This document shows, in pieces, positions 482 through 34,730 of a stretch of 64,000 nt of DNA. Where the stretch lies: NCBI GenBank assembly GCA_020631855.1, contig JACKGU010000001.1, forward strand, positions 295,601 through 359,600, written 5' to 3'. The DNA is from Candidatus Nomurabacteria bacterium. Lineage in GTDB: Bacteria > Patescibacteriota > WWE3 > UBA101185 > UBA10185. The translations under genes and the position numbers were made by a program. The notes under the pieces were generated by a model, which did not search any database, was not told the DNA's origin, and worked only from the letters and a program-made list of their open reading frames with translations. Within the stretch, counting starts at the first letter, position 1. The number at the start of each line of letters is the position of its first letter.

Positions 482-1314
482 TATTTACCCTTTCTCTTTC
501 TTGGTCGAGCTGTTACTACAAACTTATTAGTGTGTGTACGGCTACGTGTCTTAAACCCTCTTGTAGGTTTTCCCCAAGGAGTCTTTGGATGACCTGTACC
601 GTTATCTCTGTAAGAACCTGCATGTGGGTGGTCTTTTGGATTCGACATAGCGACACCTCGTACATGTGGTCTTCTACCCAAATGTCTCATTTTACCTGCT
701 TTTCCTAGTCTTGCAAGTCTATGGTCAGCATTCCCGAGGGTTCCTATTGTAGCATAGCATTTTGCAGCAACTTTTTTAACCTCTCCACTAGGGAGTTTAA
801 CGTTTACGAAATTTCCTTCTTTGGCCAAAACAACAGCGCTGTTACCTGCGCCCCTTACCATCTGTGCACCTTTTCCCGGGTTTAGCTCAATATTATGTAT
901 AGGCATACCTGCAGGAATGTTACTTAACGGTAAGCTATTTCCAACCTGAGCTTTTGCATCTTCCCCTACCTCAACGACCATCCCGACTTCTAAACCTTCG
1001 GGTGCCAAAATATAAGACTTCTCCCCATCTGCATAGTGTAAAAGGGCTAAATCGGGCCCTCGGTTCGGATCATATTCGATTGCGGCCACTTTTGCAGGAA
1101 TGCCGAATTTTATTCTTTTAAATTCTATTATTCTGTAATGCTTTTTTGCGCCTCTTTCTCTGAAGCGACTTGTAACAGTGCCTTTACTACGTCCAACATG
1201 GCCTTTTATTGATTTCGTTAATCTTTTTTCAGGCTTTGATTTAGTTATATTACTCTTTACGAGTGTTTTTCTTGTCCTAATTCCCGGACTTGTAGGCTTA
1301 TATTTTTTTAGCAT
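481..1314 (-). CDS. rplB: 50S ribosomal protein L2
   Basis: 277-aa ORF with L2 hallmarks (GRNN-type core, ...[13 protein letters not shown]...). Synteny. Confidence 0.97.
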
Positions 1315-1315
1315 T

Positions 1316-1609
1316 TTACTTCGTCTCCTCCGTCAGTTTTATCTTTTGCCCTTTTTTAATCTCGATTACCGCTTTCTTCCACTTTGGGGTTTTGGTAAAT
1401 CTTCTGGATTTCAGTATTCTTCTCTTTTTTCCGGGCATAATATATGTTTTTACATCCAAAACTTCAACACCAAACATTTTTGCCGCCACTTCAGCAATTG
1501 CACCTTTGGAGGCTTTCACACCCACTTCGAAAGTGTATTTGTTCTGCCCCTCGGCTTGTACAGACTTTTCGGTTATTATCGGTTTTTTAATTATTTCGTT
1601 TAACTTCAT
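1316..1609 (-). CDS. rplW: 50S ribosomal protein L23
   Basis: 97-aa ORF, IIKKPIITEKS... start typical of L23. Lies between L4 and L2. Confidence 0.93.
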   Translation of the reverse strand: MKLNEIIKKPIITEKSVQAEGQNKYTFEVGVKASKGAIAEVAAKMFGVEVLDVKTYIMPGKKRRILKSRRFTKTPKWKKAVIEIKKGQKIKLTEETK

Positions 1610-2244
1610 TATTTAAATCTCCCTTTGTATTTTGTCTGTATTATATCAACGGCCTTTTTTGTAAAAATAACTTTGTGGGCATTCATAAGTTCATAAGCAT
1701 TAACATTTTGTACCAAAGCAGTATGAACCCAAGGAATATTGGCGACACTCTTTCTCACATTCATATCATTATCATCTAGTATTATTAAGGATCTTCTTGA
1801 GTCTAAACCGGCAGCCTTCATCATTGCTGCAAATTTAGAAGTACTTGGCTCTGCTGCCTTTAGCGTATCCACAACAAAAACGTTATCCTTAGACACCTTC
1901 AAAGATAGTGCGCTTAGAAGTGCTAAAGATTTCATCTTCTTTGTAAGTTTTAAGCTCCACGATTTTGGCTTAGGTCCGTGCACAATTCCACCTTTTCTCC
2001 ATAGAGGGCTTCTGATAGACCCGACTCTAGCGCGTCCCGTACCTTTTTGACGCCAAGGCTTTCGACCAGCCCCGGATACTTCAGCTCTGGTTTTAGTTGA
2101 TGAAGTTCCCTGTCGCATATTATGCAAAAAGACTCTTACATACTGTTTTAAAGTCTCTATACGAGGCTCAAGTTTAAACACAGAAGTATCAAGATCCATT
2201 TTCTCTAAAACTTCACCCTTTGTATTAATTACATTAATTTGCAT
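1609..2244 (-). CDS. rplD: 50S ribosomal protein L4
   Basis: ORF 1609..2259 contains GAGRKPWRQKGTGRARVGSIRSPLWRKGG. The start is probably MQINV at 2244 (the upstream MRRYR would deepen the overlap with rplC). Confidence 0.93.
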   Translation of the reverse strand: MQINVINTKGEVLEKMDLDTSVFKLEPRIETLKQYVRVFLHNMRQGTSSTKTRAEVSGAGRKPWRQKGTGRARVGSIRSPLWRKGGIVHGPKPKSWSLKLTKKMKSLALLSALSLKVSKDNVFVVDTLKAAEPSTSKFAAMMKAAGLDSRRSLIILDDNDMNVRKSVANIPWVHTALVQNVNAYELMNAHKVIFTKKAVDIIQTKYKGRFK

Positions 2245-2719
2245 TCTGTACCTCCTCAACGACTGTTCCTTGTTGCGGTAAATCTATGTAAATCGTTATA
2301 TCTGCGTTTCTCGCTCCCGGAACCGGGCCCGTTAAAGCTATGATTTTGGTTTCATTATTAATATCAACAATTCGCAGGCCTTTCAAAGTAACCTGCTTGT
2401 TGCCTTGGTTTCCGGCCATCTTCTTACCCTTAAAAACCTTGCTTGGTGTCTGAGCTCCAATAGAGCCGCCGGATCTTGCCTTGTCTGACTGACCTCGGGT
2501 AGCCTGGGCACCTTTAAAATTCCATTTTTTCATAACTCCTGTAAATCCTTTACCTTTGGAGATGCTGGAAATTACAACTTCATTATTTAAAACCGAGCTG
2601 TCTAAAGCAGACTCCAACGAAACATACGTAACGGGAATAACTTTACCTTCAGGTGTAAATACCTGACTCATGTTAAGTTTCTTACCTTTTAATTTGTTCC
2701 AATTCTTATAGTCTTGCAT
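2234..2719 (-). CDS. rplC: 50S ribosomal protein L3, unusually short (161 aa)
   Basis: N-terminal KGKKLNMSQVF..PVTYV and C-terminal SKGKGFTGVMKKWNF...GSIGAQTPSKVFKGKKMAG blocks match L3. The middle segment is strongly shortened. Confidence 0.9.
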   Translation of the reverse strand: MQDYKNWNKLKGKKLNMSQVFTPEGKVIPVTYVSLESALDSSVLNNEVVISSISKGKGFTGVMKKWNFKGAQATRGQSDKARSGGSIGAQTPSKVFKGKKMAGNQGNKQVTLKGLRIVDINNETKIIALTGPVPGARNADITIYIDLPQQGTVVEEVQNAN

Positions 2720-2832
2720 TTTATCTCGCTAACTTCGCTTATTACTAAGCATTGGCTCTAAGCTCTATTTTAAACTTTTCAGTTTGTTTTTAGTAATAAA
2801 TGCCGAGCTAAAAGCATTTATATTATTTAAAT

Positions 2833-2852
2833 AAAAAAAGCCCTAAAGGGCT
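2833..2852 (-). terminator. Intrinsic terminator between rpsJ and rplC
   Basis: Minus strand reads AGCCC-UUUA-GGGCU followed by seven U. It lies in a 220-bp spacer inside the S10 operon. Confidence 0.55.
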
Positions 2853-2940
2853 CCTAATACTTTATATTATTTGCCCTGTTATGTAAACCTTTTTATTAAA
2901 ATCAACATTTTTTATTTTGCGCAGTAGGCGCATTTGGCAG

Positions 2941-3264
2941 CTACATTTTAATAGAAATACCTACACCTGCCGGTAAGCTAAGGTTTGATAAGGTTTCTAT
3001 TGTTGCAGCTGTTGGATTGACTACATCCAACACTCTCTTGTGAGTTCTAAGTTCAAACTGCTCTCGAGACCTTTTATCTATGTGGGGGCCTCTTATTACA
3101 GTGTATCGTTCTGTTTTTGTTGGCAAAGGAACAGGTCCTACTATCGACGCTCCGGTTCGAACCGTTGCATCGGCAATTTTTTGGCAACTCAAATCAATGA
3201 TTCTGCTATCGTATGCCTTTAGTTTTATTCTAATTTTTATGTCTTTTTTTTCTGTTTTTGCCAT
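2941..3264 (-). CDS. rpsJ: 30S ribosomal protein S10
   Basis: 107-aa [12 protein letters not shown]...LDVVNPT is a canonical S10. Confidence 0.97.
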
Positions 3265-3274
3265 TTTTTCTGGG

Positions 3275-3299
3275 GAGGGGCGCCTGAATGGCGCCCCTC
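3275..3299 (-). other. GC-rich 10-bp stem-loop between tuf and rpsJ (no U-tract)
   Basis: GAGGGGCGCC-5 nt-GGCGCCCCUC, a perfect complement in an AT-rich background. Confidence 0.6.
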
Positions 3300-3310
3300 A
3301 TTAAATAATC

Positions 3311-4489
3311 TTAAGCAAGCACCTTTGTAATAACTCCGGCTCCTACTGTGTGACCGCCTTCTCTAATTGCGAATTTTAGGCCTTCTTCTAATGCTACAGG
3401 TGTAATAAGCTTAACTTTTATGTTTGTGCTGTCACCCGGCATTATCATCTCAACACCTTCGGTTAAAGTGATTTCTCCGGTTACATCTGTTGTTCTAAGA
3501 TAAAATTGAGGCCTATATCCTGCAAAGAATGGCTTGTGTCTTCCGCCCTCTTCTTTTGACAGAACATATATTTCAGCTTCGAATTCGGTGTGAGGTGTAA
3601 CAGAACCTGCCTTGGCAAGTACTTGTCCTCTTTCTATATCTTCTCGACCAATACCTCTAAGAAGAATTCCGACGTTGTCTCCAGCCTGACCCTCCTGCAT
3701 TGATTTTTTGAACATTTCAACACCGGTTACTGTGGTCTTTCTAGTGTCTTTTATACCAACGATTTCGATTTCTTCTCCTACTTTAACGACACCTCTCTCG
3801 ATTCTTCCCGTTGAAACGGTACCTCTACCTGAAATAGAGAATACGTCTTCAACTGGCATCAAGAATGGCTTGTCAAGGTCTCTCTTAGGAGTTGGGATAT
3901 AACTGTCTACAGCGTCCATTAATTTAACAATTGACTCTGCGGCTTCAGCATCGCCTTCTAGAGCCTTTAATGCTGAACCTCTTATTACAGGGATCTCTTC
4001 TCCCGGGAAACCATACTTTGTTAGAAGCTCTCTAACTTCAAGTTCCACCAGATCTAAGAGCTCTGCGTCTTGAACCATGTCTGTTTTATTCATGAACACT
4101 ACTATTGCAGGAACGTTAACCTGTCTTGCAAGAAGTATGTGTTCTCTAGTTTGAGGCATCGGTCCATCAGGTGCAGAAACAACCAAAATAGCCCCGTCCA
4201 ACTGTGCAGCACCGGTAATCATGTTCTTGATGTAGTCGGCGTGACCCGGACAGTCAATATGAGCGTAGTGCCTTGCGGCGGTCTCGTACTCAACGTGGGT
4301 AATATTTATGGTAATACCTCTTGCTCTCTCTTCAGGAGCTTTGTCTATATCTTCAAATTTTTTAAAGTCTGCCATACCTTTGTCTGATAAGACTTTTGTA
4401 ATAGCAGCAGTAAGTGTTGTCTTTCCATGATCGACGTGACCGATGGTACCGACATTGGCATGTGGTTTATTTCTAATAAAATCTGCCAT
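3311..4489 (-). CDS. tuf: Elongation factor Tu
   Basis: 392-aa [21 protein letters not shown], NKxD motifs. Confidence 0.98.
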
Positions 4490-7660: not shown

Positions 7661-10600
7661 TTACTCTATCTCCGCCCGTTCGCCGGTTGGGATTAATCTA
7701 CCAATAATAACATTTTCTTTCAATCCCTGGAGCATATCGACTTTACCAGACGAGGCGGCATCGGTCAACACTTGGCTTGTCTGAATAAAAGCCGCGGCAG
7801 ATAAGAAACTGTCTGTATTGAGAGAGGCTTTTGTAATACCAAGAAGTGTGACTCTTGCAGTAGCAGGAGTTCCGCCCTCAGCTATAACCCTTTCGTTCTC
7901 CTCAATAAAGGTATCTTTTGTTGCTATATCGGTCGGCAAAAATGAAGTATCTCCCGCATCCTCAACCTTAACGTGGCCAAACATCTGCTTAACTATAACT
8001 TCAATATGCTTATCGTTCAAAGGCACTCCCTGACTTGCATAAACATTTTGAATTTCACTTAAGATATATTCTTTTGTCTTTGCTACACCCACAGTACTTA
8101 ACAAGTCCGCTAGATCAAGATGACCTTCGGTAAGCTTGTCGCCCTTGGCGACAAGCTGCCCATCCTCAACTATGATTGTTGCAATAGGATCGACAACATA
8201 CTCAACCATCTTTTGTTCCTCAGACGGATCACTTGCTTTAACAAGTATTTTTCTCTCATCTCCGGATTCAATAATAGTAACAGACCCTGTAATATCGCTC
8301 ATAACCGACAAGAATTTAGGAGCCCTGGCTTCAACTAATTCCTCTATTCTCGGCAAACCTTGAGTAATGTCTTTACCAACAACACCTCCGGTGTGGAATG
8401 TTCTCATTGTAAGCTGAGTTCCCGGCTCACCTATTGCTTGGGCTGCTGAAACTCCAACGGCCACGCCCATATCTACCAACGATTGGGTCATTATGTCGGC
8501 GCCATAACATTGTGCACAAATACCTCTGCGGGTTTCACAAGAAAGCGGCGATCTAATAACTACTGTATCTACTTTTTCGTCTTGCAATAAACGTAAATCC
8601 TCAGCTGTTAACATATGCCCACGCTCCAATAGCTTTTTATTGCCTTTCTTCACTTCTTCAGCTAAAATTCTTCCTTTAAATCTTTCCTCAAAGGAATTTA
8701 AGAGAGTCTTTTCTCCCACACGAATTGTTCTACCTGAGGTAGTTCCACAGTCATCTTGTCTAACAATAACCTCCTGGGCTACATCAACCAATTTTCTGGT
8801 CAAGTATCCTGCATCAGCAGTCTTAAGAGATTTATCAACTAGACCTTTACGAGCGCCTCTTGCACCTACGAAGTATTCCAAGGCTGACAATCCAAGCTTA
8901 TAGTTACCGAGCAAAGGCATGGTAACAATGTTTCCTGAAGCATCAAATACTAAACCTCTAATACCGGCCAATTGTGAAACTTGAGTTCTCGAAGCTCTTG
9001 TTGCTTTTGAGTTTATTAGTAATTTCAATGGGTTGCTGTCAGTCAAGTTGCCCCAGATTTTGTCATCTATCTCGGATCTTACGCCTTCCCATAAGTCTTC
9101 CGTATGTCTGTGTTTTTCACGTTCAGTAATGTATCCCATATTAAAGTTTTTATTTACCTCAAAAACTTTAGCTTTTCCTGCTTCAATTAAGGTTTCTCTT
9201 TCGGCTGGAATCGCGACATCGTCAAGTGAAACAGACTGGCCTGCCGATGTTCCGTATTTAAGACCAAAGTCTTTAAGATTGTCGATTAAATCTGCTATAT
9301 CTTGATTTGGGAGCTCATCAAAAACTTTTACTAAAATTTCTTCTACTTTACTCTTATCTACCGCCTCGTTCACAAATGCATAGTTTTCAGGCAAATACTC
9401 ATTAAATCTCAGTCTTCCCAGTGTAGTTTCAACTATTTTTCCGTTTATTCTTACCTTAATTAACTGTCTTTCGGAAATAATTGATAGAGCATCAAAGGCA
9501 TATCTTGCCTCTGCAGCAGAAGCGAATACTTTTTCGTAAAGCTCTGTACTATTATCAAGAGATGTAATGTAGTAAATACCAAACAAAACGATCTTTGCGG
9601 GAATTGAGAAAGGTTTACCGTCGGAAGGGCGTCTTAAATTAGCTATTGAAATCATCTTAGTTTTTGCTTCCTCAACTGATTGCTTTGATAAAGGAACCAA
9701 AACAGCCATTTGGTCTCCGTCAAAGTCAGCGTTATAGCCCGGGCATACGCACAAATGTAATCTAATAGCATTGCCTTCAATTAGCTTGGGATAAAATGCT
9801 TGAATACCTAACCTCCAAAGAGTTGGTTGTCTGTTCAGAAGCACTGGGTGATCTTTAACTACTTCCTCTAAGATGTCCCAGACTTCTGATACTCTTGATT
9901 CTAATACATACTTTGCACTTTTAACATTTGGGGCAATGCCTCGAGATAATAATTCTCTTAACACAAAAGGTTTAAAAAGTTCCAATGCCATTTCCTTTGG
10001 AATTCCACACTCATCCAATCTCAAAGTAGGGCCATTAACAATAACCCCTCTACCGGAGTAATCAACTCTCTTACCTAATAAGTTTTGTCTGAAACGACCC
10101 TGCTTACCTTTTAACTGGTCAGCTAAAGATTTTAAGGTCTTCTTTCCTCTTGAGGATCTCGCCTTATTTCGTTGCTTTGAAGAATCCAACAAAGCATCAA
10201 CCGATTCCTGAAGCATTCTTTTTTCATTTCTAATTATTACTTCCGGGGCTCCTAGATCCAACAATTTTTTCAATCGGTTATTTCTATTTATAACTCTTCT
10301 ATATAGATCGTTTGCGTCTGAAGTTGCGAAACGTCCGCCATCAAGCTGTACCATAGGTCTTAGTTCCGGCGGTATTACGGGCAAAACATCAATAACCATG
10401 CGCGCGGGCTGTATGCCGGCTCTTCTGAAACCCTCAACTACTTTTAATCTTTTCGATAGCTTTACTGCTTTTTGTCCCTTAGATCTCTCTAACTCAGACC
10501 TTAATGATTCGGAAAGATCGTTTAAATCAAGCTCTTCCAAAATATACTTTATGGCATCAGCTCCAATCGCAACTTCACAGAAAAGATCAATGTAATCTGC

Positions 10601-16041: not shown

Positions 16042-16067
16042 TTTAAAAATTCTCCAATAATATCATC

Positions 16068-16181
16068 AAAACTACCAATCACCGCCAGCTTACGCAGGTG
16101 TTTTGCTGTAATTTCTTTTTGTTGCAAAGCCCAACATGCTGGGTAAGCTACCTCTACTAGCTTACGCAAGCAGCTATAAGT
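16068..16181 (-). ncRNA. Candidate structured small RNA, repeat-family copy A
   Basis: Aligns over its whole length with 30257-30366 and 32796-32904. Conserved TATAAT at 16188-16193 (minus). Three hairpins with compensatory changes. Confidence 0.55.
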
Positions 16182-16196
16182 AACAAAATTATAAAA

Positions 16197-22578: not shown

Positions 22579-24696
22579 CTATTTGGCTTGATTTTTGTAA
22601 ACATTGATCAAAAACTCTACATGTGCATCAAAACCCTCACCTAGTTGTTCAACACCATATAAAATCTCTTCACGATCAATTTTAGCCGCAAAAGCCCTAT
22701 CTTTAAATTTCTTCTTTACTGACGATACTTTCATGCCGTCGTAACCTTCGGGGCGCATCAATGCGTACGCATATAGAAATCCGGCCATCTCATCCACGGC
22801 AATAAGCGCAGAGGCCAGCCTGGTCTGAGGTTTTACATTGGTTCTCATGTGAGCATGAGCTGCAACTGCATGAATTAAACTCTCAGGATAGTTTCTCTCT
22901 TTAAACCATTCTAATGATTTTGCAGGATGCTCATCAGGGTATTCAAAATAATCAAGGTCATGTAATAAACCTGTGATATACCAGAGTTCGCGATCTTCAT
23001 TGAATTTTTCAGCATATGCTTCAAGACCGCGGGCGATCATAAGAGCATGCTGTATTTGATAGCTGTCCTTGACATGGTCCCGTAAAAGCGCCTCCGCCTC
23101 CTTTCTAGAAGGTAGAAATCCCTCGGAGCTAATGTATAAACTCTCGTTTAAATCAGTTTTACTTAGAGAGTCTTCTACTAGAGGATCGCTCTTGGATAAC
23201 CCGTAGATTTCAGCGTTTGCATCGTCGTAAACATGCTTCAATTGAGGAAATGGAACTCCTTCCCTTGCTGTAACATCCTCTAAAAACCAAAAAACTCTTT
23301 CTGAATGACCATAACCAAATGTCGGCGGCATGCCGTATTCAAGCATTTCAACATAATCAATATCGAGCCACTGCGCTTCCGAATCACCGGAATCTCTCAT
23401 TGACTGCTGTTCCGAAAATCGTTCAAACTGATCCAAGCCACTATTTATTTCCGACCAGCCATTTCCGAGTTCGGAGCCGGCAATAATTGGCTGGAAACGC
23501 TCTGTTATTCTGGTATCTTTTGGGTTCGCCTTTGCTAACGGCGACAAATACTTAGGGTGATTAATTAAAAAGGCAGGCCCCCCAATAGTTCTACGTATTT
23601 CTTTCCAAAGAGCGTCCACTAATCGTGGCCGATTCTCTGTCTCTGCCTTTATTCCGGCTTTTTCGCAAGCTAGCTTTAAATCTTCAATACTTGAATTGTG
23701 TACGTCTACTCCATATCTCTGCTTCATGATGTCAGAGAAATCAATCCTTTCCCACTCTTTTTTGGAGAAATCAACTTCAAAACCCCTAATACTGAACTTC
23801 TTCTTATCTCCGTAAAGAGATTCAATCACGTAATTAAAAAGGTCTTGAATAAAATCCATACCTGATTGCCAATCAGCGTAAGCCCAATAAACCTCCATCG
23901 CCATGTGTTCGGGAAGATGCTCGTCGGATAAACCCTCATTTCTGAATCTTGGGCCTATTTCATAAACTTTTTCATAGCCCCCTCCAATTAATCTTTTCAA
24001 AAAAAGTTCATGGGAAATTCTAAGATAAAGAGTCTCATCGATGGAGTCCATATGAGTCACAAAAGGATTCGCGTCTGCCCCTCCGGGCACTGCTTCTAAA
24101 ACAGGAATATTAATCTCATAGAAACCCCTTTTTTCAAAAAACTCGCGATGAGCAGCCCAAAACTTAGAACGTCTAATGTATCTATCACGAACATCATCAT
24201 TTATCCTTGTATCTAGATATCTTTTACGCATTCTGGTCTCTCTGTCTTTAAGCCCATCGTGCTTGTCGGGCAATGGTCTAAGGGATTTGGCCAATATTCT
24301 TATGCTGTGGGGCTCTATAGACTGCTCGCCGCTATTTGTTATTACTAAAGCTCCCTTGCACTCTATATAATCTCCAATATCTAATAAATCCAGCTCAGAG
24401 TAGGATATTTCACTATTTTTGTGTTCAACTTTTTCAAGATTTTGTTCCTTAATATATACCTGAATTGTGCCTGAAAAATCTTTTATATCAAAAAATGTCA
24501 GCTTTCCATGTCTTCTCAACGACATGATCCAACCGGCTAAAATTACTTCCTTTCCCCCAAGTTTGCCAAAGCTGCTTATAACTTCAGAGATTAGGTGGGT
24601 CCTAAAAGACGTTGCCGGATAAGGATCAACGCCTAGATCTTGAAGATTTTTAAGTTTTTGTAATCTTACATCCCTTAGCTCTTTTAAAGTGGCCAT
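22579..24696 (-). CDS. lysS: Lysyl-tRNA synthetase (class II) fused to a C-terminal HD-domain phosphohydrolase
   Basis: N-terminal OB and class II core, then a ~180-aa HD module (QHAL...LLHDLDY...AAHAH). The start is taken at MATLKEL (24696), behind AGGAAA. Confidence 0.9.
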   Translation of the reverse strand: MATLKELRDVRLQKLKNLQDLGVDPYPATSFRTHLISEVISSFGKLGGKEVILAGWIMSLRRHGKLTFFDIKDFSGTIQVYIKEQNLEKVEHKNSEISYSELDLLDIGDYIECKGALVITNSGEQSIEPHSIRILAKSLRPLPDKHDGLKDRETRMRKRYLDTRINDDVRDRYIRRSKFWAAHREFFEKRGFYEINIPVLEAVPGGADANPFVTHMDSIDETLYLRISHELFLKRLIGGGYEKVYEIGPRFRNEGLSDEHLPEHMAMEVYWAYADWQSGMDFIQDLFNYVIESLYGDKKKFSIRGFEVDFSKKEWERIDFSDIMKQRYGVDVHNSSIEDLKLACEKAGIKAETENRPRLVDALWKEIRRTIGGPAFLINHPKYLSPLAKANPKDTRITERFQPIIAGSELGNGWSEINSGLDQFERFSEQQSMRDSGDSEAQWLDIDYVEMLEYGMPPTFGYGHSERVFWFLEDVTAREGVPFPQLKHVYDDANAEIYGLSKSDPLVEDSLSKTDLNESLYISSEGFLPSRKEAEALLRDHVKDSYQIQHALMIARGLEAYAEKFNEDRELWYITGLLHDLDYFEYPDEHPAKSLEWFKERNYPESLIHAVAAHAHMRTNVKPQTRLASALIAVDEMAGFLYAYALMRPEGYDGMKVSSVKKKFKDRAFAAKIDREEILYGVEQLGEGFDAHVEFLINVYKNQAK

Positions 24697-24730
24697 TATT
24701 TTATTTCCTAAACTGAATACGTACTTCGCA

Positions 24731-24739
24731 ATTATAACA
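24731..24739 (-). promoter_or_regulatory. Extended -10 promoter (TGTTATAAT) of lysS, 34-nt leader with an SD
   Basis: Read on the minus strand. AGGAAA lies about 10 nt before the ATG. Confidence 0.45.
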
Positions 24740-24907
24740 GAAAAGGGGCAGGTACAAAGCACCCAAAAATAGTGCTAAAACATTTTTACGGCCTAAATTT
24801 TTTTATTTGCTTTTATATTGCTAACCCGAACAAAATTCTTTTAGTACATGGCCTAACCTGCTTATACTAGCCACAAACAACAAAGAACTGTAAAATATCT
24901 GCAGAGT

Positions 24908-25873
24908 ATGAAAAAAATAACTGAAGCTACGATCGCTCAAGGCACTAGGGTTTTTGTGAGTACAGATATAGATGTACCTATAGATAATGGGCATATTAGA
25001 AATACTTTTAGACTCGACCGTGGCTTAGAAACTCTTAAGTACATAGTAGATAAAGGAGCAATCCCAGTAATTGGGGGCCATATAAAAAATCCTCAAGGAA
25101 AATACGATCCCCAGCTTAGTACAGCACCTCTTAAAAAGTATTATAATGAAAAATTAGGGGAGGGTTCTTACGAACTATTAGAAAATCTGCGTTTTGACAT
25201 TAGAGAAGATCAGAATGAGGATACCTACGCACAGGAACTGGCAAATAAAACAGAGGTCTTTGTAAACGAGAATTTTGCAACCTCACATCGAACAAATGCT
25301 TCTTTAGTTGCTATTACTAAATACTTACCTTCATTCGCGGGACTTAATTTGAGCAGAGAAATCGAAGCTTTGGATAAAATACTTATCGACTACAAAAAGC
25401 CTTTTACTGCAGTTATTGGCGGAGCGAAAGTTGAAAGCAAGGCACCTGTTATTGATTCGCTTTGCAACATAGCTGACAATATCCTGCTTGGTGGGAAAAT
25501 AGGCTTAAACTATTCTACGGATAATGCTAGGGTGAGCTCTCCGGCCGACTACGCAGACGGTAATCAAGATATCGGCCCGAAAACAATCCTAAACTATACA
25601 GGATACATACTGTCAGCCCAAACACTTTTATGGGCCGGGCCTATGGGAGCTTATGAAAAAGACGAATTCTGTATTGGTACAAATCTAATCGCAGATGCGA
25701 TAGTGGAAGCAACAAAAGGCGGCGCTTATAGCATAATAGGAGGCGGAGATACGATTACAGCTTATAGCAAGAACCACGCATTGGGAGAAGTAAGTTTTGT
25801 TTCAACAGGAGGAGGGGCCATGCTGACATATCTGGCGCATAAGAATATGCCCGGCATTGAGGCTTTAGGATAA
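24908..25873 (+). CDS. pgk: Phosphoglycerate kinase (compact, 321 aa)
   Basis: NENFATSHR, IGGAKVESK, GGGDT, STGGGAML motifs. Confidence 0.92.
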   Translation: MKKITEATIAQGTRVFVSTDIDVPIDNGHIRNTFRLDRGLETLKYIVDKGAIPVIGGHIKNPQGKYDPQLSTAPLKKYYNEKLGEGSYELLENLRFDIREDQNEDTYAQELANKTEVFVNENFATSHRTNASLVAITKYLPSFAGLNLSREIEALDKILIDYKKPFTAVIGGAKVESKAPVIDSLCNIADNILLGGKIGLNYSTDNARVSSPADYADGNQDIGPKTILNYTGYILSAQTLLWAGPMGAYEKDEFCIGTNLIADAIVEATKGGAYSIIGGGDTITAYSKNHALGEVSFVSTGGGAMLTYLAHKNMPGIEALG

Positions 25874-25876
25874 ATT

Positions 25877-26179
25877 ATGGCAAAAAGTTTAAAAGTTCAG
25901 TTTCCGGAACGTTGCATAGGCTGCGAACTGTGCATCATGGAAATACAAAGACAGCTTAAAAAACACGGCCTCGAAGGTTCTCTGATTAGAGTTTTTAAAA
26001 GTGCCAAAGAAGGAAAAGAAATATGCGAGACTCTGGAATACTCAATAGATCTAGACCCGAGCATAAATTCATACGACATTGAACAAATTAGGAAAATTTG
26101 CCCAAAAAGTGTTTTTGTTGTGGCCGACATGACAGAAGAAGAGAACTACGAAGACGCTCTGCTGGAACAGAAAGATTAA
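25877..26179 (+). CDS. Small ferredoxin-like protein (single CxxCxxC...CP cluster motif)
   Basis: FPERCIGCELC plus a distal ICP. Starts 4 nt after the pgk stop and ends 2 nt before the next start. Confidence 0.6.
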   Translation: MAKSLKVQFPERCIGCELCIMEIQRQLKKHGLEGSLIRVFKSAKEGKEICETLEYSIDLDPSINSYDIEQIRKICPKSVFVVADMTEEENYEDALLEQKD

Positions 26180-26181
26180 AT

Positions 26182-27015
26182 ATGCATAAATCAGTCTTAT
26201 TTGTTAATTTAAAAAATAAAACATACGAGGTTAAAAAATTTGACGAACTCGCAAAATACATAGGAGGAGTTGCTGTTGGATTTAAACTTCTTCTTGATAA
26301 TATAGAGCACGATCCAATTATATTTTCTATCGGACCTTTGAACGGCGTGTTTCCTTTCGCATCAAAAACTTCTATCGTTCTGCATAACAATGGCGTAGTC
26401 GAAGACTTATATATCGGGGGTTCCCTAAGCTCCAGAATGGCCTTTTCCGGGGTTGACTCCATAGTATTTATAGAATCCGCAGAAGAGCCCACATACGTTG
26501 AAATAACGAATGAGGAAGTGTTCTTTAAACCAATAACAACTGATATAGATTCTTTAGGATTACCGGGGAAAAGATCAGTTTTAAAACCAATTAAAAATAA
26601 ATACTTTTTAGATGATTATTTTTTAACTCCGGAGTTATTTTTTGAAGAAAAGCTTGCAAAGAAAAATGTAGGAGGAATAGTGTTAACAGGAACAAAAACA
26701 CGTGAAATAAAAAATCCTGAAAAATATAAGGAACTTTTACACGAAATATTAGGTAAAAAGTCTTTAATGGAAATAGATGAGGGAGATAGCCCCTCTTGCA
26801 CATTTTGTCCAATGGGGTGCTCAAAGTCTCGTACCGGAGAAATTGGAGGAAACATATTGGTACACAGCATGGTGGGATGCAAGCTTAGCCAAAAAATATA
26901 CAGCGACGTGGGAACAATTTTTTCTTGCTTGAGTGTGTTGGGCTATTCCTACACACACGAAGATATTGAAGACCTGCCTCTTCTGGTAAAAGAGGTACTG
27001 GAAAAATTAAATTAA
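26182..27015 (+). CDS. Truncated aldehyde:ferredoxin oxidoreductase-like protein (AOR N-domain plus CxxCxxxC)
   Basis: MHKSVLFVNLKNKTYEVKKF..YIGGVAVGFKLL..IFSIGPLNG..SSRMAFSGVDSIVFIE resembles the AOR N-terminal domain. CTFCPMGC matches the AOR 4Fe-4S motif. Only 277 aa. Confidence 0.6.
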   Translation: MHKSVLFVNLKNKTYEVKKFDELAKYIGGVAVGFKLLLDNIEHDPIIFSIGPLNGVFPFASKTSIVLHNNGVVEDLYIGGSLSSRMAFSGVDSIVFIESAEEPTYVEITNEEVFFKPITTDIDSLGLPGKRSVLKPIKNKYFLDDYFLTPELFFEEKLAKKNVGGIVLTGTKTREIKNPEKYKELLHEILGKKSLMEIDEGDSPSCTFCPMGCSKSRTGEIGGNILVHSMVGCKLSQKIYSDVGTIFSCLSVLGYSYTHEDIEDLPLLVKEVLEKLN

Positions 27016-27671
27016 TGAAATATTTAGTAGCAAACTGGAAATCTAATATGACAGTCTCCGAGGTTATTGTCTGGCTAAAAGCTTGGGATAAACTAATAAA
27101 AAGCGCAGAGAGTAATGATGCGGTAAGAGTTTTAGTAGCCCCTTGTTTTATACATCTTCCATTATTTACCGGTCTGGAAAATATTTATTCTTGCGGGCAG
27201 GATGTCTCGGAGAACAGCGTAGGGCCTTATACCGGATACGTGAATGCTACACAGCTAAGGGAATTCGCTGATTACAGCATAGTCGGGCACAGCGAAAGAA
27301 ATGAAGACTCTGAAACAGTTGTCAAAAAGATTAATCAGTGTAGAAATAACGGAATTGAGGCCATTGCTTGTTTCACTCACACTGAAAATGCAACAGAGTA
27401 TTCAAAATTCACAAAGATCTTAGCTTGGGAGGACCCTGAAAATATATCAAAACAAGGAAAGTATGCAGAATTAAGGTATGGTGAAATAAATCACTCTATT
27501 GAAAAAATTTACTCTAATATTGAACCCGATACTGTGTTATTATACGGAGGCTCTGTTAACTCGAATAATATTAGCGAATTAACTAGAATTAAGAGTATAT
27601 CGGGGTTTTTAGTAGGAAACGCAAGTCTGGACGTGGCTCACTTTTATAAGCTATACTGCTCCATGATCTAG
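27015..27671 (+). CDS. tpiA: Triosephosphate isomerase (compact, 218 aa)
   Basis: ANWKSN, GHSERN, GGSV motifs. The start overlaps the previous stop (TAATG). Confidence 0.9.
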   Translation: MKYLVANWKSNMTVSEVIVWLKAWDKLIKSAESNDAVRVLVAPCFIHLPLFTGLENIYSCGQDVSENSVGPYTGYVNATQLREFADYSIVGHSERNEDSETVVKKINQCRNNGIEAIACFTHTENATEYSKFTKILAWEDPENISKQGKYAELRYGEINHSIEKIYSNIEPDTVLLYGGSVNSNNISELTRIKSISGFLVGNASLDVAHFYKLYCSMI

Positions 27672-27750
27672 TACAATAAAGTGTAAGAAGTTAAAATTAA
27701 CTTTCTAAAGAAGTCTTTTTAATAGTAGAGAGCTAAGAGAAAAATTTAAA

Positions 27751-28815
27751 ATGAAATACATTGATGCGCATAAAAAAATAAATACAATTACTAAACCTGT
27801 AGCTAAAAAAAACTCAAAAGGAAGCTTCAAGGGTATTGCTACACTGGCACTTATACTTCTAATCTTCGTTGCCGTCGGGGGAACAGTTTTACTTTTTAAA
27901 AGCAAGCTGAACCCCGTTTCAATTGTTGCAAGCGCAACAAAGGCAAATATCAAAGAAACTGACGGGAGAACAAACATTCTAGTTCTCGGAAGCGACAAGA
28001 GAGATAACGGCAATGCTGTCACGTCAGTATTGACCGACACCATACTGCTAGTCTCAATAGGAAGGGTCGAGCACGACGTACTACTACTTTCCATGCCCAG
28101 AGATCTGTATGTTGAAAATTCAAAGGGATACAGTACAAAAATTAACGCTGTGTATACTTTAGAGGGGCCGGAGGAACTCCAGTCTGTAGTTGAAGACGTT
28201 CTTGGTGTTCCAATTCATTACTATGCCGTAGTTGACTTTAATTTGTTTGTAAATGCCATAAACGTACTTGGCGGCATTGATGTTAATGTTCAAAATGCGT
28301 TCACAGACTACCAGTATCCTATTGAGGGTAAGGAGAACGCGCCTATTGAGGAAAGATACGAAACAATATCTTTTGCGGCCGGAAAACAACACATGGACGG
28401 AGAGACAGCATTGAAATTCGCGAGATCAAGAAAAGGCGACAATAACGAAGGTACTGATTTCGCAAGAGCAGCAAGACAACAGTTGGTGATTGAGGCAATT
28501 AAGGAAAAGGCCCTATCCTTAAAAACAGTTACAAACGCTTCAAAGATTAAAGAGTTATACGACCTATACGCAGAAGGAATAGATACAAACCTGGGGTTTG
28601 CTGACGTCCAGGGCTTCTACCTATTGTCACAACAAATCAACTTTGACAGCATCAGATCTATTGTTCTCGACGACAGGAGCGAGGCAGATAAAGGTGGTCT
28701 ACTTTATGCTCCAATCGATACGGCCCTTTACGGCAATCAATATGTTCTCATTCCGCAGTCCGGAGACTATAGCCAAATACATGCATATGTTCAAAGATAT
28801 CTCTTTGGAGAATAA
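27751..28815 (+). CDS. LytR-CpsA-Psr (LCP) family cell-wall glycopolymer transferase
   Basis: N-terminal TM, NILVLGSD, TDTILLVSI, SMPRDLYV, VDFNLFVNAINVLGGIDV. Confidence 0.88.
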   Translation: MKYIDAHKKINTITKPVAKKNSKGSFKGIATLALILLIFVAVGGTVLLFKSKLNPVSIVASATKANIKETDGRTNILVLGSDKRDNGNAVTSVLTDTILLVSIGRVEHDVLLLSMPRDLYVENSKGYSTKINAVYTLEGPEELQSVVEDVLGVPIHYYAVVDFNLFVNAINVLGGIDVNVQNAFTDYQYPIEGKENAPIEERYETISFAAGKQHMDGETALKFARSRKGDNNEGTDFARAARQQLVIEAIKEKALSLKTVTNASKIKELYDLYAEGIDTNLGFADVQGFYLLSQQINFDSIRSIVLDDRSEADKGGLLYAPIDTALYGNQYVLIPQSGDYSQIHAYVQRYLFGE

Positions 28816-28817
28816 AA

Positions 28818-29456
28818 ATGATCGTTTTAGTTCACGGTAATAACTCTGTAAACAAAGCCGATGTAGTTTTTAAACTTAGTGAAAAAATCTCAACCCCAAG
28901 AAAATATCTTTCAATTGACGAGAATTCACCAACAGATGTTCTAACTGCAACAGCGACTAATAATATGTTTACCGGTGCACCAATTGTAATTCTGGATCTG
29001 GGTTCAAATACAAAAAGCGATGCAAAGAGTTTCCTAGATATTTTCCCGCGAGTACCTGCAAAAAGTTTGCTAATTTTATTGGCACAAAAAGAACTTCCTA
29101 AGTCAAATCAATTCCTTCAGCACGCACAGCAACAAGGCTATAAAATAATACTTAGCAACACTACTCCCACAGCAAACATTTTTTCTTTTGTCAGCTCCCT
29201 ATACTCAAAAAATAGAAAGAAAACATATAGAGAATACGAGACTTTAATAGCAGAAGGTGCTGATCCTTTTTACATTCTTTCTATGGTAATGTTCGGCGCG
29301 AGAAAGCAAGCAAAAGCTGTGAATGGGGATAAAATAGATGAAAAAACACTATCTTTATATAAATATATCTTCGAGACCGACCTAAAAACAAAAACCGGCA
29401 AAATTCCTGTTGACGTTGCTCTTCCTTTGATCATAGAAAAAGTGCTAACATCTTAG
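28818..29456 (+). CDS. Hypothetical protein, possibly a short DNA polymerase III delta (HolA-like)
   Basis: MIVLVHGNN start, MFTGAPIVILD and a helical C-terminus resemble HolA. This is a weak by-eye match. Confidence 0.4.
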   Translation: MIVLVHGNNSVNKADVVFKLSEKISTPRKYLSIDENSPTDVLTATATNNMFTGAPIVILDLGSNTKSDAKSFLDIFPRVPAKSLLILLAQKELPKSNQFLQHAQQQGYKIILSNTTPTANIFSFVSSLYSKNRKKTYREYETLIAEGADPFYILSMVMFGARKQAKAVNGDKIDEKTLSLYKYIFETDLKTKTGKIPVDVALPLIIEKVLTS

Positions 29457-29459
29457 TGC

Positions 29460-30215
29460 ATGGGAAAATTTAAAAAGAAGGTTTACCACAAAAAATATAC
29501 TAATGATCAGATCTATAACAACGTAAATCTGGGATTTACCTTAAAAAGCTCTGCGGTCCCACTTGTACTTACAGTTACGGCATGCGCCATATTTGCAACC
29601 CAAGTACTTTACCCGCTTATAAATTTTACGACCCAAGATCTTACGTCCGTCGCCGCTCAACACACAGCTTTAGCAAAAATATCAGGTTTTCGCGAGTTTC
29701 AATACTCAGAGTTACAAAGAAATGTACTAGGCTCAACAAATAATAGCGAACAGGTACAGGAGAAGTTTTATATTTCGATTCCAAAACTTAATATTGAAAA
29801 CGCTGAGGTAGAGACAAACTCTTCGAACCTAAATCCTGAAACCGCTCTTGGCCATTATCTGGGCTCAGCCTTACCGGGGCAAAATGGCACAGCGTTTGTG
29901 TACGGACACTCTGTGCTGCCTTTCTTTTACAACCCAAAAAACTATAAAACTATATTTTCAACCCTGGGAGATCTAGAAAAAGGAGATTTGATATATGTCA
30001 TATACGGCAATAGATCTTATACATACGAGGTAGAAGGGCAGAGAGAGCTTAAACCGGAAGAGGTTAATCCTATTGAGAACATAAAACCTGAATATCTACG
30101 AAAATCGTCCTTAGTTCTTATGACCTGCTCACCGCCGGGAACAAAGCTTAAAAGGCTACTTATAGACTCTGTTCTAATAAACACATCGATAATACAACAG
30201 AATTCAATAGAATAG
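29460..30215 (+). CDS. Sortase-family transpeptidase
   Basis: N-terminal TM, catalytic His in VYGHS, Cys in LVLMTCSPPG (TLxTC type), downstream Arg (KLKRLL). Confidence 0.85.
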   Translation: MGKFKKKVYHKKYTNDQIYNNVNLGFTLKSSAVPLVLTVTACAIFATQVLYPLINFTTQDLTSVAAQHTALAKISGFREFQYSELQRNVLGSTNNSEQVQEKFYISIPKLNIENAEVETNSSNLNPETALGHYLGSALPGQNGTAFVYGHSVLPFFYNPKNYKTIFSTLGDLEKGDLIYVIYGNRSYTYEVEGQRELKPEEVNPIENIKPEYLRKSSLVLMTCSPPGTKLKRLLIDSVLINTSIIQQNSIE

Positions 30216-30256
30216 TGTTATTTACTGACAATAGCAGATTTAATGAGCCAGGTCTT

Positions 30257-30366
30257 AAAATCATCCGCCACCAGCTTACGCGGGTGGTTTGCTGTAATTT
30301 CTTTGCGTTGCAAACCCAACATGTTGGGTAAACTATACCTACTAGCTTAAGCAAGTAGTTTTAAGT
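30257..30366 (-). ncRNA. Candidate structured small RNA, repeat-family copy B
   Basis: About 89 percent identical to copy C by eye. TATAAT at 30373-30378. Preceded by a terminator. Confidence 0.55.
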
Positions 30367-30378
30367 AATGAGATTATA

Positions 30379-30413
30379 AACAAGAATACAGAAATACGCC
30401 TCATGGGCGTATT
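30379..30413 (-). terminator. Terminator of the VPVTG-protein operon
   Basis: AAUACGCC-CAUGA-GGCGUAUU followed by U-rich UCUGUAUUCUUGUUU. Confidence 0.5.
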
Positions 30414-30459
30414 CCTAAAATGTTCTATAATTATAGTGCTCTGGGCTCAACGCAGATAC

Positions 30460-31011
30460 CTAATCTCTTAGAATCTTCTTTTCAAATCTAGTTTTAATAT
30501 AGCTCTTTGGGTTCATGAAGAAGTTGTAAAAGACAAACGTAAACAATGTTAACGAAATTAGCAAACCCAAAGTTACGCTAGTAGAGCCAGTTACAGGAAC
30601 TGGTGCGGTAGTTTGAGTTGTTTGAATTACTCCCCCGCCACCTCCTGCTGCAGCAGCTAAGACTGCAGGTGTATTTACTCCTCCTACCGACTCGGAATCA
30701 CCAGCACCGGTTACTAAAGATGCAAAAACACTTGGCTCTTCCATTGCCCCATCGGTTGCCTGAGTCACGGAAGTTGTTGTAGGTTCAGCAGAACCTGTTT
30801 CTTTTATTGAATAAATTCCCATAACGGCCTCATTGTCGCCTGGAGTCTTTTTCTGAGCATTTTTAGAGGAAATTGAAGAATCGGAAATTGAAACCGAATC
30901 AACGGAAGTCTCAGAAACCATAAAATACAGCGCACTGAAAACCAAAACTGATATCGAAAAAGTTATTATAAATGTTTTTAAGCCATTCTTAGCTTGACTG
31001 TTAGTATTCAT
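30460..31011 (-). CDS. Ser/Thr-rich surface protein with a C-terminal sortase sorting signal (VPVTG + TM + basic tail)
   Basis: N-terminal signal/anchor, low-complexity body, VPVTG at 30586-30600, then the hydrophobic stretch LGLLISLTLFTFVFYNFF and KSYIKTRFEKKILRD. Start taken at MNTNSQ. Confidence 0.7.
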   Translation of the reverse strand: MNTNSQAKNGLKTFIITFSISVLVFSALYFMVSETSVDSVSISDSSISSKNAQKKTPGDNEAVMGIYSIKETGSAEPTTTSVTQATDGAMEEPSVFASLVTGAGDSESVGGVNTPAVLAAAAGGGGGVIQTTQTTAPVPVTGSTSVTLGLLISLTLFTFVFYNFFMNPKSYIKTRFEKKILRD

Positions 31012-31189
31012 AGGCAGGAATCCTAATACTATCAATATACTGAATGTCGAGATCTCCCTTAAACGGCACAGCATTTATTCTAGCTTGTTCCGAAATTTCA
31101 AAGGATCTTGAGATCTCTTCTCTTCCTTTTGAAAGTACTATAAAAAGTATAAAGATACTTGAGCAAAAAATCAACAAGAACCATTTCAT
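31001..31189 (-). CDS. Possible small membrane protein (62 aa)
   Basis: The ORF has a hydrophobic N-terminus (MKWFLLIFCSSIFILFIVL) and overlaps the next start by 11 nt. No SD and no homology recognised. Confidence 0.25.
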   Translation of the reverse strand: MKWFLLIFCSSIFILFIVLSKGREEISRSFEISEQARINAVPFKGDLDIQYIDSIRIPAYEY

Positions 31190-31246
31190 ATTATTATTTT
31201 ATATCTTTCTACAAACAAATACTTCATAAAAATGCAAAGCTTAGTA

Positions 31247-31828
31247 TCAATTAATATAGTAAATAGCAAATGTAACTATAAGAGTATCCTTTCCGGAATT
31301 GGGATTGGAATCTACATCCGCCCGTGCACTAACCACTGCGTATACTCTTTTTGAGACACTCAGGTCCTGCAGAAATTTAGGCAAAGCAGAAATATCTCCT
31401 GTTAACTTAGCAGAATAGAGCTCAGAGTATTCAACATAATCCGACTTCGTCACACTGGAATCATTGGAGGATGTCCCCTTGACTTCATCAAGCGACAGTC
31501 CGTTAATCCTTGCTATCTGTGATAGTTCAAAAATCATACCATCGTAGTCCTTTTCAACGGGAACTCCATTCATAATAATTTCAGTTTTTAAATTTCTTAC
31601 TAAATAAGGCTCGAGCAGAGCTACACGATTTATATTGTTTTTTATAATAGTTCCTTGCTCCGAAAACTCTTTAACGAGATCTTTCTTATATTTATAGGCG
31701 GAATAACCCCTAACGGCACCGAAATATCCCACAACAACTACATTAAAAGCTAAAAAGCACAGAAACAAAACAAAATTTCTGTAAGGTCGGCTTTGTATTT
31801 CTCGATCATAATAATTATTCAACTTCAT
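31247..31828 (-). CDS. Bitopic membrane protein, PilO-like topology
   Basis: Short cytoplasmic N-terminus, one TM, coiled segment, then an alpha/beta C-domain. 4-nt overlap with the upstream gene. The assignment is tentative. Confidence 0.4.
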   Translation of the reverse strand: MKLNNYYDREIQSRPYRNFVLFLCFLAFNVVVVGYFGAVRGYSAYKYKKDLVKEFSEQGTIIKNNINRVALLEPYLVRNLKTEIIMNGVPVEKDYDGMIFELSQIARINGLSLDEVKGTSSNDSSVTKSDYVEYSELYSAKLTGDISALPKFLQDLSVSKRVYAVVSARADVDSNPNSGKDTLIVTFAIYYIN

Positions 31829-32466
31829 TTGTATGTAACCTCTATCGAAATATCATACGAGCCCCCGCGATTTAAGCCTGCGTACAATAAACTGATTGAT
31901 TCTATATCTTTGTTTGAAAAAAGATTAGACATATAGATAGAAGCGTTTATCGGCTCGGAAACAACAATGTTTAGGTTTGCTTTATCAGTATCAAATGACG
32001 TGCTAGAGTAAAAACCCTTCGGCACATCCGTATTCATTACTTCTGCGTGTCTGCTGATCAGACTTCTTTTTGACTCTATAGATTTGTAAGTAGCTATACG
32101 ATCATTTACTTTAGTAACATCGGCAATAATATCTTTTCTGCTGCTGAAAGTATCTGACAAGTCTTCGACTTCTATTACAAGCTGCTCAAGCTGTCGGTTA
32201 ACTGAAAAGTTAAGCAGAAGGATAATCAAATATATTACCTGAATAAAAATGATTAAATAAACTATTATCCTCGGGGTAGAGTCGGGAATACTAATACTTT
32301 TTTCTTGAAATAAGTTTGGGGTATAAATAGGCTCAGTTGCCTCTAGCGGCTCATTTAGTGGCTGGTTTAGTCTTTGCTTTAGATTTTGAAGCTTTTTCTT
32401 TGCTGGCAGTAGAAACTTTAGTTTCTTTTTCAGCTGTATTTTTTTCTTTTTCTGGACCTTGGGCAT
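31825..32466 (-). CDS. Bitopic membrane protein, PilN-like topology, Lys-rich N-terminus
   Basis: One TM (IIVYLIIFIQVIYLIILLL), coiled coil, C-domain. The ATG at 32466 lies inside the rpsT tail. The assignment is tentative. Confidence 0.4.
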   Translation of the reverse strand: MPKVQKKKKIQLKKKLKFLLPAKKKLQNLKQRLNQPLNEPLEATEPIYTPNLFQEKSISIPDSTPRIIVYLIIFIQVIYLIILLLNFSVNRQLEQLVIEVEDLSDTFSSRKDIIADVTKVNDRIATYKSIESKRSLISRHAEVMNTDVPKGFYSSTSFDTDKANLNIVVSEPINASIYMSNLFSNKDIESISLLYAGLNRGGSYDISIEVTYK

Positions 32467-32728
32467 TGGCAGATACTTTCTTTGAAATCTTTGATTTTAT
32501 TCTGGCAGCCTTGTTCTTATGAATAACGTTATTTTTTGCAGCTTTATCTACTACTTTATACAATACTCTTTCCTGCTCTTTGATTATATCAAGTTCTTTT
32601 GTATTTGTAGAAAGCAATTTTTCTATTGCCTTCACAGAAGCCTTAATCTTGGTTTTCCAGAATATGTTATGAAGTCTTTTCTTCGCAGAAGATCTGACGG
32701 CTTTTTTTGCTGACTGTGTATTTGCCAT
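32351..32728 (-). CDS. rpsT: 30S ribosomal protein S20 with a ~40-aa Lys-rich C-terminal extension
   Basis: MANTQSAKKAVRSSAKKR...VIHKNKAARIKSKISKK is the S20 core. The frame stays open to the TGA at 32351. Confidence 0.88.
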   Translation of the reverse strand: MANTQSAKKAVRSSAKKRLHNIFWKTKIKASVKAIEKLLSTNTKELDIIKEQERVLYKVVDKAAKNNVIHKNKAARIKSKISKKVSANAQGPEKEKNTAEKETKVSTASKEKASKSKAKTKPATK

Positions 32729-32739
32729 ACTGCGGTAGT

Positions 32740-32767
32740 ATGATAACACAGTAGCACAATTTGACAA
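32740..32767 (-). promoter_or_regulatory. rpsT promoter TTGTCA-16-(TGT)TATCAT, 11 nt from the ATG
   Basis: Read on the minus strand. No SD. Confidence 0.5.
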
Positions 32768-32795
32768 TACTTTGTTATACTAGGACCCCATAACT

Positions 32796-32904
32796 GATCA
32801 ACCACCACCAGCTGACGCAGGTGATTTGCTGTAATTTCTTTGCGCTGTAAAGCCCAACATGTTGGGCAAACTACATTTACTAGCTTACGCAAGTAGTTTT
32901 AAGT
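32796..32904 (-). ncRNA. Candidate structured small RNA, repeat-family copy C
   Basis: TATAAT at 32911-32916. Hairpins AAACUAC/GUAGUUU, GCCCAAC/GUUGGGC and CACC/GGUG. Lies upstream of a separate rpsT promoter. Confidence 0.6.
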
Positions 32905-33009
32905 AACGAAATTATATAAGATAGCAAAAATTAAGACGGTGCTTAAATAATCGGCTGTGTACACAGGCCGTAATTTTTGCTAAAAAGAAACATACATAGA
33001 TACAAAAAA

Positions 33010-34671: not shown

Positions 34672-34730
34672 TTATCTTTTCAATACAGAGAGGGGTTGTA
34701 GTTTTAGATCAAGAATTATAAAGTACTTTT

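Follow-up and report, generated by a model that had tools for sequence, protein, structure and literature searches.

What are three similar, hairpin-prone segments doing between housekeeping genes of a Candidatus Nomurabacteria bacterium? The segments lie within one stretch of 64,000 nucleotides, referred to here as the window. The original prediction regarded them as candidate genes of a novel family of small RNAs, read from the minus strand as transcripts of about 110 nt, each from a -10 box of its own. The analysis favours a different answer, to which a probability of about 0.6 is attached: the segments are copies of a lineage-specific, dispersed intergenic repeat of about 125–130 bp, that is, of miniature, non-autonomous and probably once-mobile DNA of Candidatus Nomurabacteria.

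The starting observation holds. Alignment and a repeat scan found all three segments where they had been reported, in a single orientation and alignable over their full length, so that the window contains three co-oriented copies (A, B, and C) of an intergenic element of about 125–130 nt (Table 1). Copies A and B are 82% identical, A and C 85%, and B and C 88%. Across all copies retrieved, including those from outside the window, identity amounts to 75–92%, and amid this divergence no segment or base-pairing is visibly protected. The covariance model that had been proposed as a check was built from five copies and run with filters off. It assigns 145–151 bits (E about 1e-27) to A, B, and C and 17 bits to the runner-up in the window. 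A repeat scan of the 64 kb revealed no second non-coding repeat family besides that of A, B, and C (D1). The segments are a genuine multi-copy, hairpin-forming intergenic element.

Table 1. Positions of the element and of its internal features in the window.
Feature	Copy A	Copy B	Copy C	Strand	Remarks
Whole copy	16066..16196	30251..30381	32788..32919	minus	Covariance-model hits of 144.9 bits (A; also alignments and Pfam-identified flanking genes), 145 bits (B; Pfam on flanks), and 151.3 bits (C; Pfam on flanks)
TATAAT hexamer	16188..16193	30373-30378	32911-32916	minus	5' edge of copy
Hairpin 1	16145..16176	30330-30361	32868-32899	minus	YUGC-GUAA-GCUR tip and U.U mismatch
Hairpin 2, central 16-bp palindrome GCCCAACATGTTGGGC	16129..16144	30314-30329	32852-32867		No strand
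17-nt stretch AAAGAAATTACAGCAAA	16102..16118	30288-30304	32825-32841	minus	Invariant in A, B, and C
Hairpin 3	16083..16100	30269-30286	32806-32823	minus	Second YUGC-GUAA-GCUR module

Further copies were sought in metagenome contigs. A pattern scan returned two more true copies, L124:9351-9482 and L127:6180-6309, both from sample ERZ795048, which also holds contigs encoding identical RuvX, sortase, and S12 proteins at a like coverage of roughly 4–5x. The GC content of L124 and L127 is that of the window (0.38–0.39). Since sample, coverage, and GC content are all shared, the two contigs very probably represent other loci of the genome to which the window belongs. A sixth variant occurs in a low-coverage chimeric contig (L123, positions 1-166), in which the 3' half of copy A follows the 5' half of an otherwise unseen copy, the two halves meeting at the conserved core. 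Misassemblies thus arise at the element in addition to contig breaks. The latter recur: short-read assemblies end inside copy A (L116-118, L150, L151), inside copy B (L140, L142, L146), and inside copy C (L171, L173, L174), and the breaking of independent assemblies inside the copies of a sequence is the usual behaviour of genomic repeats.

With only 5–6 copies retrieved in total, statistical power is low. The metagenome scan was moreover incomplete, two contigs known to carry copy B with the exact 22-mer (L139, JGI Ga0116244_10003674; and L141, ERZ795048 NODE_5125) not having been returned, so that negative results of such collection scans are weak evidence. In the GTDB species genomes, a scan with the 22-mer gave only three chance matches (Bacteroides, Dehalococcoidia, and Polaribacter), and the 110 matches of a 17-mer scan of viral sequences were all due to chance, their flanks agreeing at no more than 21 of 60 positions. 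Just one of the peptides of spurious ORFs of the element was present in the protein collection by exact look-up.

The internal architecture is largely as first described. Read on the minus strand, the copies carry TATAAT at 16193-16188, 30378-30373, and 32916-32911, and in copy A this hexamer begins at the fourth base past the secA stop codon (16199-16197). The three hairpins are present, as is the internally duplicated TGCGTAAGCT module, which is exact twice in copy A and once in C, whereas both modules of B and the other one of C deviate by one mismatch. The sequence YTGC-GTAA-GCTR and a conserved pyrimidine-pyrimidine mismatch are common to hairpins 1 and 3; measured from the alignment boundaries, one of them lies about 22 nt from one end and the other about 9 nt from the opposite end, both on the same strand. 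Hairpin 1 can form two alternative stems, GUAG being present twice, and one-sided mutations have left it with two or three mismatches in L124 and L127. The central palindrome is perfect in B and C, whereas in A, L124, L127, and L123 one of its arms is broken; in the last three, the 5' arm alone of hairpin 2 is mutated, with no compensation. The 17-nt stretch is the point at which Logan contigs starting inside copies A and C break, and on the plus strand it is part of a 10-bp, G.U-rich hairpin that forms on that strand only. An invariant run of this length is not longer than a random placement of the variable columns gives (P about 0.2), and L124 and L127, which were found by means of this stretch, cannot count as evidence for its conservation.

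All five located copies are intergenic (5/5), and their junctions have little in common. Copy A fills the whole spacer between secA and the gene of a HAD hydrolase, both on the minus strand, from 3 nt past the secA stop to about 25 nt ahead of the GTG start of HAD. According to Pfam, copy B lies in the convergent spacer between a sortase gene (plus) and an ORF for a 204-aa membrane protein (minus), and copy C in the divergent spacer between rpsT (minus) and murJ (plus). The L124 copy begins 3 nt after a tRNA-Val(GAC) gene and has a GH1 glycosidase (glucosidase) gene downstream, and the L127 copy separates polA, upstream, from the gene of a ClpB-like ATPase, downstream. The ends are sharp, A abutting a stop codon and L124 a tRNA gene at the distances just given. 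The remaining genes of the window are housekeeping genes (rpoBC, the S10/spc ribosomal operons, hrcA-grpE-dnaK-dnaJ, nusA-infB, pnp, and ftsK).

Evidence on the origin of the copies comes from the same junctions in related genomes. The host lineage is isolated, since the closest LepA among 5.8 billion proteins is only 72% identical, and exact look-ups of the S12 and L2 proteins for closer relatives returned the same species only. The comparison was made with three relatives whose LepA is 70–71% identical and in which gene order is kept across the region. The genes for secA and HAD, 155 nt apart in the window, overlap by 23 nt in L164. From the sortase gene to the next gene, the distance is 244 nt in the window and 43, 4, and 2 nt in L158, L161, and L163, respectively, and the distance from rpsT to murJ is about 280 nt in the window and 24 nt in L158 and L163. 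Each of the three sites is therefore empty, its flanks abutting or overlapping, in at least one of the three relatives. In about 96 kb of sequence from these relatives, the covariance model with filters off found nothing above 17 bits; a weak match in L161 (16.8 bits, E 0.2) proved on inspection to be unrelated sequence. Tight junctions in the relatives, together with the absence of a model match there, make the copies look like lineage-specific insertions, although with relatives as distant as these a gain in the host lineage cannot strictly be told apart from losses in the others. Within the host species, presence/absence polymorphism among strains was not seen, every sampled contig that reaches the sites carrying A, B, and C; the family is thus fixed and not currently jumping.

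Two of the sites have a history of their own. In L159 (GCA_964385105.1), two opposite-strand ORFs of 474 and 51 aa with no Pfam match lie between secA and HAD (8381-9963), so this junction takes insertions in more than one lineage. At site B, a strong 12-bp hairpin followed by a T-run (30389-30417, minus strand) forms the terminator of the 204-aa membrane ORF, 11 nt upstream of the copy. The gap of 2–43 nt in the relatives leaves no room for such a terminator, and the spacer in the window has therefore gained more than the element alone.

How could such copies have arisen? At least five unrelated tight junctions contain a unit of the same fixed length but not its flanking sequence, and copying of this kind requires a mechanism by which the ends of the unit are recognised. 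The element would then have spread at the DNA level, by means of a trans-acting enzyme that recognises defined ends. The handle for this enzyme may be the two near-identical imperfect hairpins YTGC-GTAA-GCTR, which are subterminal and lie on one strand, as is the case for the substrates of HUH/Y1 transposases. Mobilisation by an HUH/Y1 single-strand transposase, of the IS200/IS605 or REP-RAYT type, would fit this layout, but it is a guess and a rather unlikely one. The family now looks inactive, its copies apparently fixed and decaying. With each copy, a -10-like TATAAT and some 110 nt of sequence prone to form hairpins come to lie behind an upstream gene, ahead of a downstream gene, or both. 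Side effects on host genes are possible, and the element could also be transcribed.

As is typical of MITEs and other mobile repeats, discrete copies are dispersed over the genome (at least 5–6 are known) and sites A, B, and C are empty in relatives. The original prediction had named two further signs of such DNA, namely many more copies and their presence in both orientations with target-site duplications. More copies have indeed been located, in L124 and L127 and as the variant in L123, whereas the retrieved copies show neither the mixed orientations nor the duplications. By eye, the flanks and ends of six copies reveal no terminal inverted repeats, no target-site duplication, and no conserved insertion target, so the element is not a classical MITE. 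Nor was a transposase of any kind found in the roughly 105 kb formed by the 64-kb window, its extensions of roughly 20 kb, and the 21 kb of L124 and L127. Mobility is also argued against by the lack of strain polymorphism and by the sense orientation of all three copies between co-directional genes, which an expressed RNA would predict as well. On contig L127, a Mrr-type restriction endonuclease and a large serine recombinase are encoded at 1019-3528, 2.6–5 kb from the copy, possibly as part of an integrated element.

As regards lifestyle, the element most resembles the Rickettsia palindromic elements (RPEs), selfish repeats of 100–150 bp that populate a reduced genome with no visible transposase. 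Both kinds of repeat are dispersed, measure roughly 100–150 bp, can form hairpins, and are specific to a lineage with a tiny, repeat-poor genome; both decay after fixation and have neither a transposase nearby nor classical inverted ends. The sequences are unrelated, however, and RPEs also enter protein genes in frame, whereas this element is intergenic wherever it has been located. Furthermore, an RPE forms one long palindrome, whereas the hairpins of the element are short and number three on the minus strand or four on the plus strand.

In structure, the element comes close to the PATEs of the IS200/IS605 family and to REP/REPIN sequences, which are moved by TnpA and RAYT proteins. These also lack inverted termini and target duplications, and they are expected to have an imperfect hairpin close to either end, both on one strand. 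The element has such a pair, and its two hairpins retain their mismatch. The uniform orientation of the element with respect to co-directional genes is what single-strand insertion linked to replication predicts, and in the window such genes also follow the polarity of GC skew. By contrast, the flanks of six copies share no left-end target of 4–5 nt on either strand reading, and no Y1 transposase or RAYT is encoded in the roughly 105 kb that were read. REPINs, in addition, are inverted pairs of REPs, whereas the modules of the element are direct. The link to HUH/Y1 enzymes is therefore put forward as a resemblance and not as a demonstrated membership. A third group of comparable sequences comprises the Correia elements of Neisseria and the pneumococcal BOX and RUP elements, small intergenic repeats with promoter-like hexamers and hairpins that are co-transcribed with their neighbours and able to alter their expression. 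Correia and RUP elements differ in that they end in clear inverted repeats and duplicate their target (TA or another), neither of which is seen here. BOX elements are modular, with A, B, and C boxes in variable number, whereas the architecture of the element is fixed.

Most likely, then, a small dispersed intergenic repeat of a known class has been met in an unusual host. Genomes of CPR bacteria (Patescibacteria) are tiny and tightly packed and are usually held to be repeat-poor. Here, an element of 125 bp has come between genes whose counterparts in relatives abut or overlap, and it has become fixed in all populations sampled, which makes it a clear, if small, case of the gain of selfish or neutral DNA by a streamlined genome. 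On the practical side, metagenome assemblies of this organism repeatedly break at the element or become chimeric there. Should a matching HUH transposase be found, HUH mobilisation would be extended to the CPR group; should the element be expressed, it would be an early example, for CPR bacteria one of the first on record, of a lineage-specific family of non-coding RNAs. A search of the literature on such repeats or on small RNAs in Patescibacteria yielded only TIGR-Tas arrays and tRNA group I introns, which have no bearing on the element.

The alternative that survives best, unlikely as it now appears, is the one first proposed: a multi-copy family of small regulatory RNAs, about 110 nt long, transcribed on the minus strand from their own TATAAT. 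Such an RNA would present two GNRA-capped hairpins around a single-stranded, conserved 'seed' AAAGAAAUUACAGCAAA, and its genes could have spread beforehand as DNA. Several properties speak for it. TATAAT is kept in five of the six copies at a fixed distance from hairpin 1, and GUAA tetraloops cap seven of the 11 hairpin tips. Copy B stands alone in a convergent spacer after a terminator, as an independent transcription unit would, and the three copies between co-directional genes are all in sense orientation to these genes. In six sequences, the three-hairpin model pairs 88% of the cells against 20–54% with slid partners, which means that the hairpins are real consensus features. The family would also be new. 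At gathering thresholds, Rfam release 15 gave no match anywhere in the window; with permissive E-values, copies A, B, and C reached chance-level scores only (13.5–27 bits, far below threshold). Nor were tRNA and tmRNA genes found, all of which agrees with the original remark that the element is not recognisable as a known RNA.

The signals needed for a separate transcript are another matter. Neither a -35 box nor a TG extension accompanies TATAAT at A, B, and C, and no intrinsic terminator follows these copies; to our knowledge, the promoter rules of CPR bacteria are poorly characterised. In five copies, hairpin 3 is not followed by a U-run, and in four of the five a transcript started at TATAAT would enter the next gene. 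The hexamer, which had been taken for a -10 box, is present 57 times in the window, where chance alone predicts 59; its maintenance is within neutral expectation, and in L124 it is lost (TGTAGT).

Conservation of the RNA structure fares no better. Instead of the several compensatory substitutions that had been claimed, six sequences contain one pair in which both partners differ, an A-U of hairpin 1 that is G-C in copy A, and one possible second, the closing pair of hairpin 2 (G-C versus A-U), which depends on where the 1-nt deletion of copy B is placed. With these 5–6 sequences, column shuffles reach the observed pairing and covariation in 157 of 500 cases on the minus strand and in 500 of 500 on the plus strand, and RNAalifold reports no compensatory pairs on either. 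A lack of supported covariation is one of the outcomes that the original prediction had itself named as counting against a small RNA. The choice of strand is equally balanced. A G-U wobble in the central stem of copy A had been adduced for the minus strand. G.U pairs that exist on that strand only occur in hairpins 1 and 2; they are offset by hairpin 3, where copies A and L127 have an A.C mismatch if read on the minus strand and a G.U pair if read on the plus strand. These mismatches and the plus-only core hairpin favour the other strand. A four-hairpin fold of the plus strand pairs 92% of the cells, against 88% for the minus strand, also without covariation, and folding z-scores (-0.03 to -2.4) are alike for both strands. 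Finally, the conservation of the 'seed' is not significant, no site in the window is complementary to it at up to three mismatches, and the element is absent from relatives. Of the novel RNA family, what stands is a multi-copy hairpin element that matches no known family, and what finds no support in covariation, strand preference, promoter, or terminator is the minus-strand small-RNA gene. Multi-copy families of small RNAs known elsewhere include the Qrr1-5 RNAs of Vibrio and the csRNAs of streptococci, which likewise come as several paralogous units of about 100 nt with hairpins around a conserved unpaired stretch. Those RNAs have regulator-dependent promoters, Rho-independent terminators, and positions conserved across related species, none of which was found for the element.

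This idea also has a bolder version. The element might represent a previously undescribed structured RNA family of about 110 nt, specific to a CPR (Nomurabacteria) lineage, with a duplicated GNRA-capped hairpin module and a conserved U.U mismatch, which would have multiplied in the genome and stayed functional. Possible roles would be those of a protein-sequestering or regulatory RNA, or of a guide or cofactor RNA for some enzyme. This too is improbable. That the element encodes a small peptide, starting at the ATG of the central palindrome (15–34 aa, MLGFA..RNYSK..), was discarded, as the frame is shifted in B, a Shine-Dalgarno sequence is lacking, and the changes are mostly non-synonymous.

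Alternatively, the element may have been co-opted by the host as a cis-acting module, i.e. a portable promoter and/or a structured 5' leader (or 3' end) that would act on the expression or the stability of the adjacent mRNAs; a mobile origin would be consistent with this, too. The positions of the copies invite this explanation, since four of five lie directly upstream of a co-oriented gene, ending 25–75 nt before its start (in A and L124 just ahead of the Shine-Dalgarno sequence), and four of five directly follow a gene or tRNA of their own orientation. At site A, moreover, the insertion parted secA and HAD, which overlap in a relative, so HAD may depend on sequence in or beside the element. 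Yet riboswitches and other cis-leaders keep a constant position before functionally related genes, and nothing of the kind is seen here. The downstream genes (HAD hydrolase, rpsT, GH1 glucosidase, ClpB-like ATPase) have no common function, their counterparts upstream (secA, tRNA-Val, polA) are just as unrelated, and copy B has no co-oriented gene downstream. The structure is not conserved, and rpsT keeps a promoter-like site of its own past copy C. A role in cis is quite doubtful.

The site in front of rpsT (32740-32767, minus strand) reads TTGTCA-16-TG-TATCAT, and lies between copy C and rpsT. Only 11 nt separate it from the rpsT ATG, so the mRNA would have almost no leader. Its -10 region is matched in L158 and L163, the relatives that lack the element and have 24 nt between rpsT and murJ. 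On the other side of copy C, between the copy and the murJ start (33010), the plus strand has a palindrome CGGCTGTGTACACAGGCCG and then TAATTTTT (32953-32971), which together resemble a terminator, yet no plus-strand gene ends there.

Very little speaks for duplex DNA sites of a dimeric protein, with the palindrome GCCCAACATGTTGGGC between two TGCGTAAGCT half-palindromes and a chromosome-organising or origin-proximal function. The 16-bp palindrome is perfect in B and C, neither strand is favoured, and B and C lie at a switch of GC skew and gene orientation, possibly an origin region. But one arm of the palindrome is broken in all other copies (A, L124, L127, and L123), the syntenic relatives do without the element, and we know of no resemblance to parS, the DnaA box, or CIRCE; this interpretation is very improbable. 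The switch itself, in the sign of GC skew and in gene orientation, extends over about 24000-36000 around rpsT|murJ. It may mark the replication origin (or terminus), and a dnaA gene was not seen in the window.

Other types of repeat can be dismissed on architecture or context, namely parS-, DnaA-, or CIRCE-like sites, CRISPR-repeat-like GTTTGC...GCAAAC, and a template/variable pair of a DGR. The same applies to integron attC sites, whose RYYYAAC and GTTRRRY cores lie at opposite ends, pair across the site, and occur in cassette arrays; the cores GCCCAAC/GTTGGGC of the element are only 2 nt apart, in its middle, and the flanks are syntenic housekeeping genes, not cassettes.

Two features of the window outside the element deserve mention. 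A non-coding gap of 221 nt (2720-2940) separates the S10 and L3 genes of the S10 operon and has no Rfam match (best score 20.8 bits, E 0.13). At 22579-24762, the window encodes an aspartyl-tRNA synthetase with an extra C-terminal HD (phosphohydrolase) domain, a fusion that is kept in the syntenic relatives.
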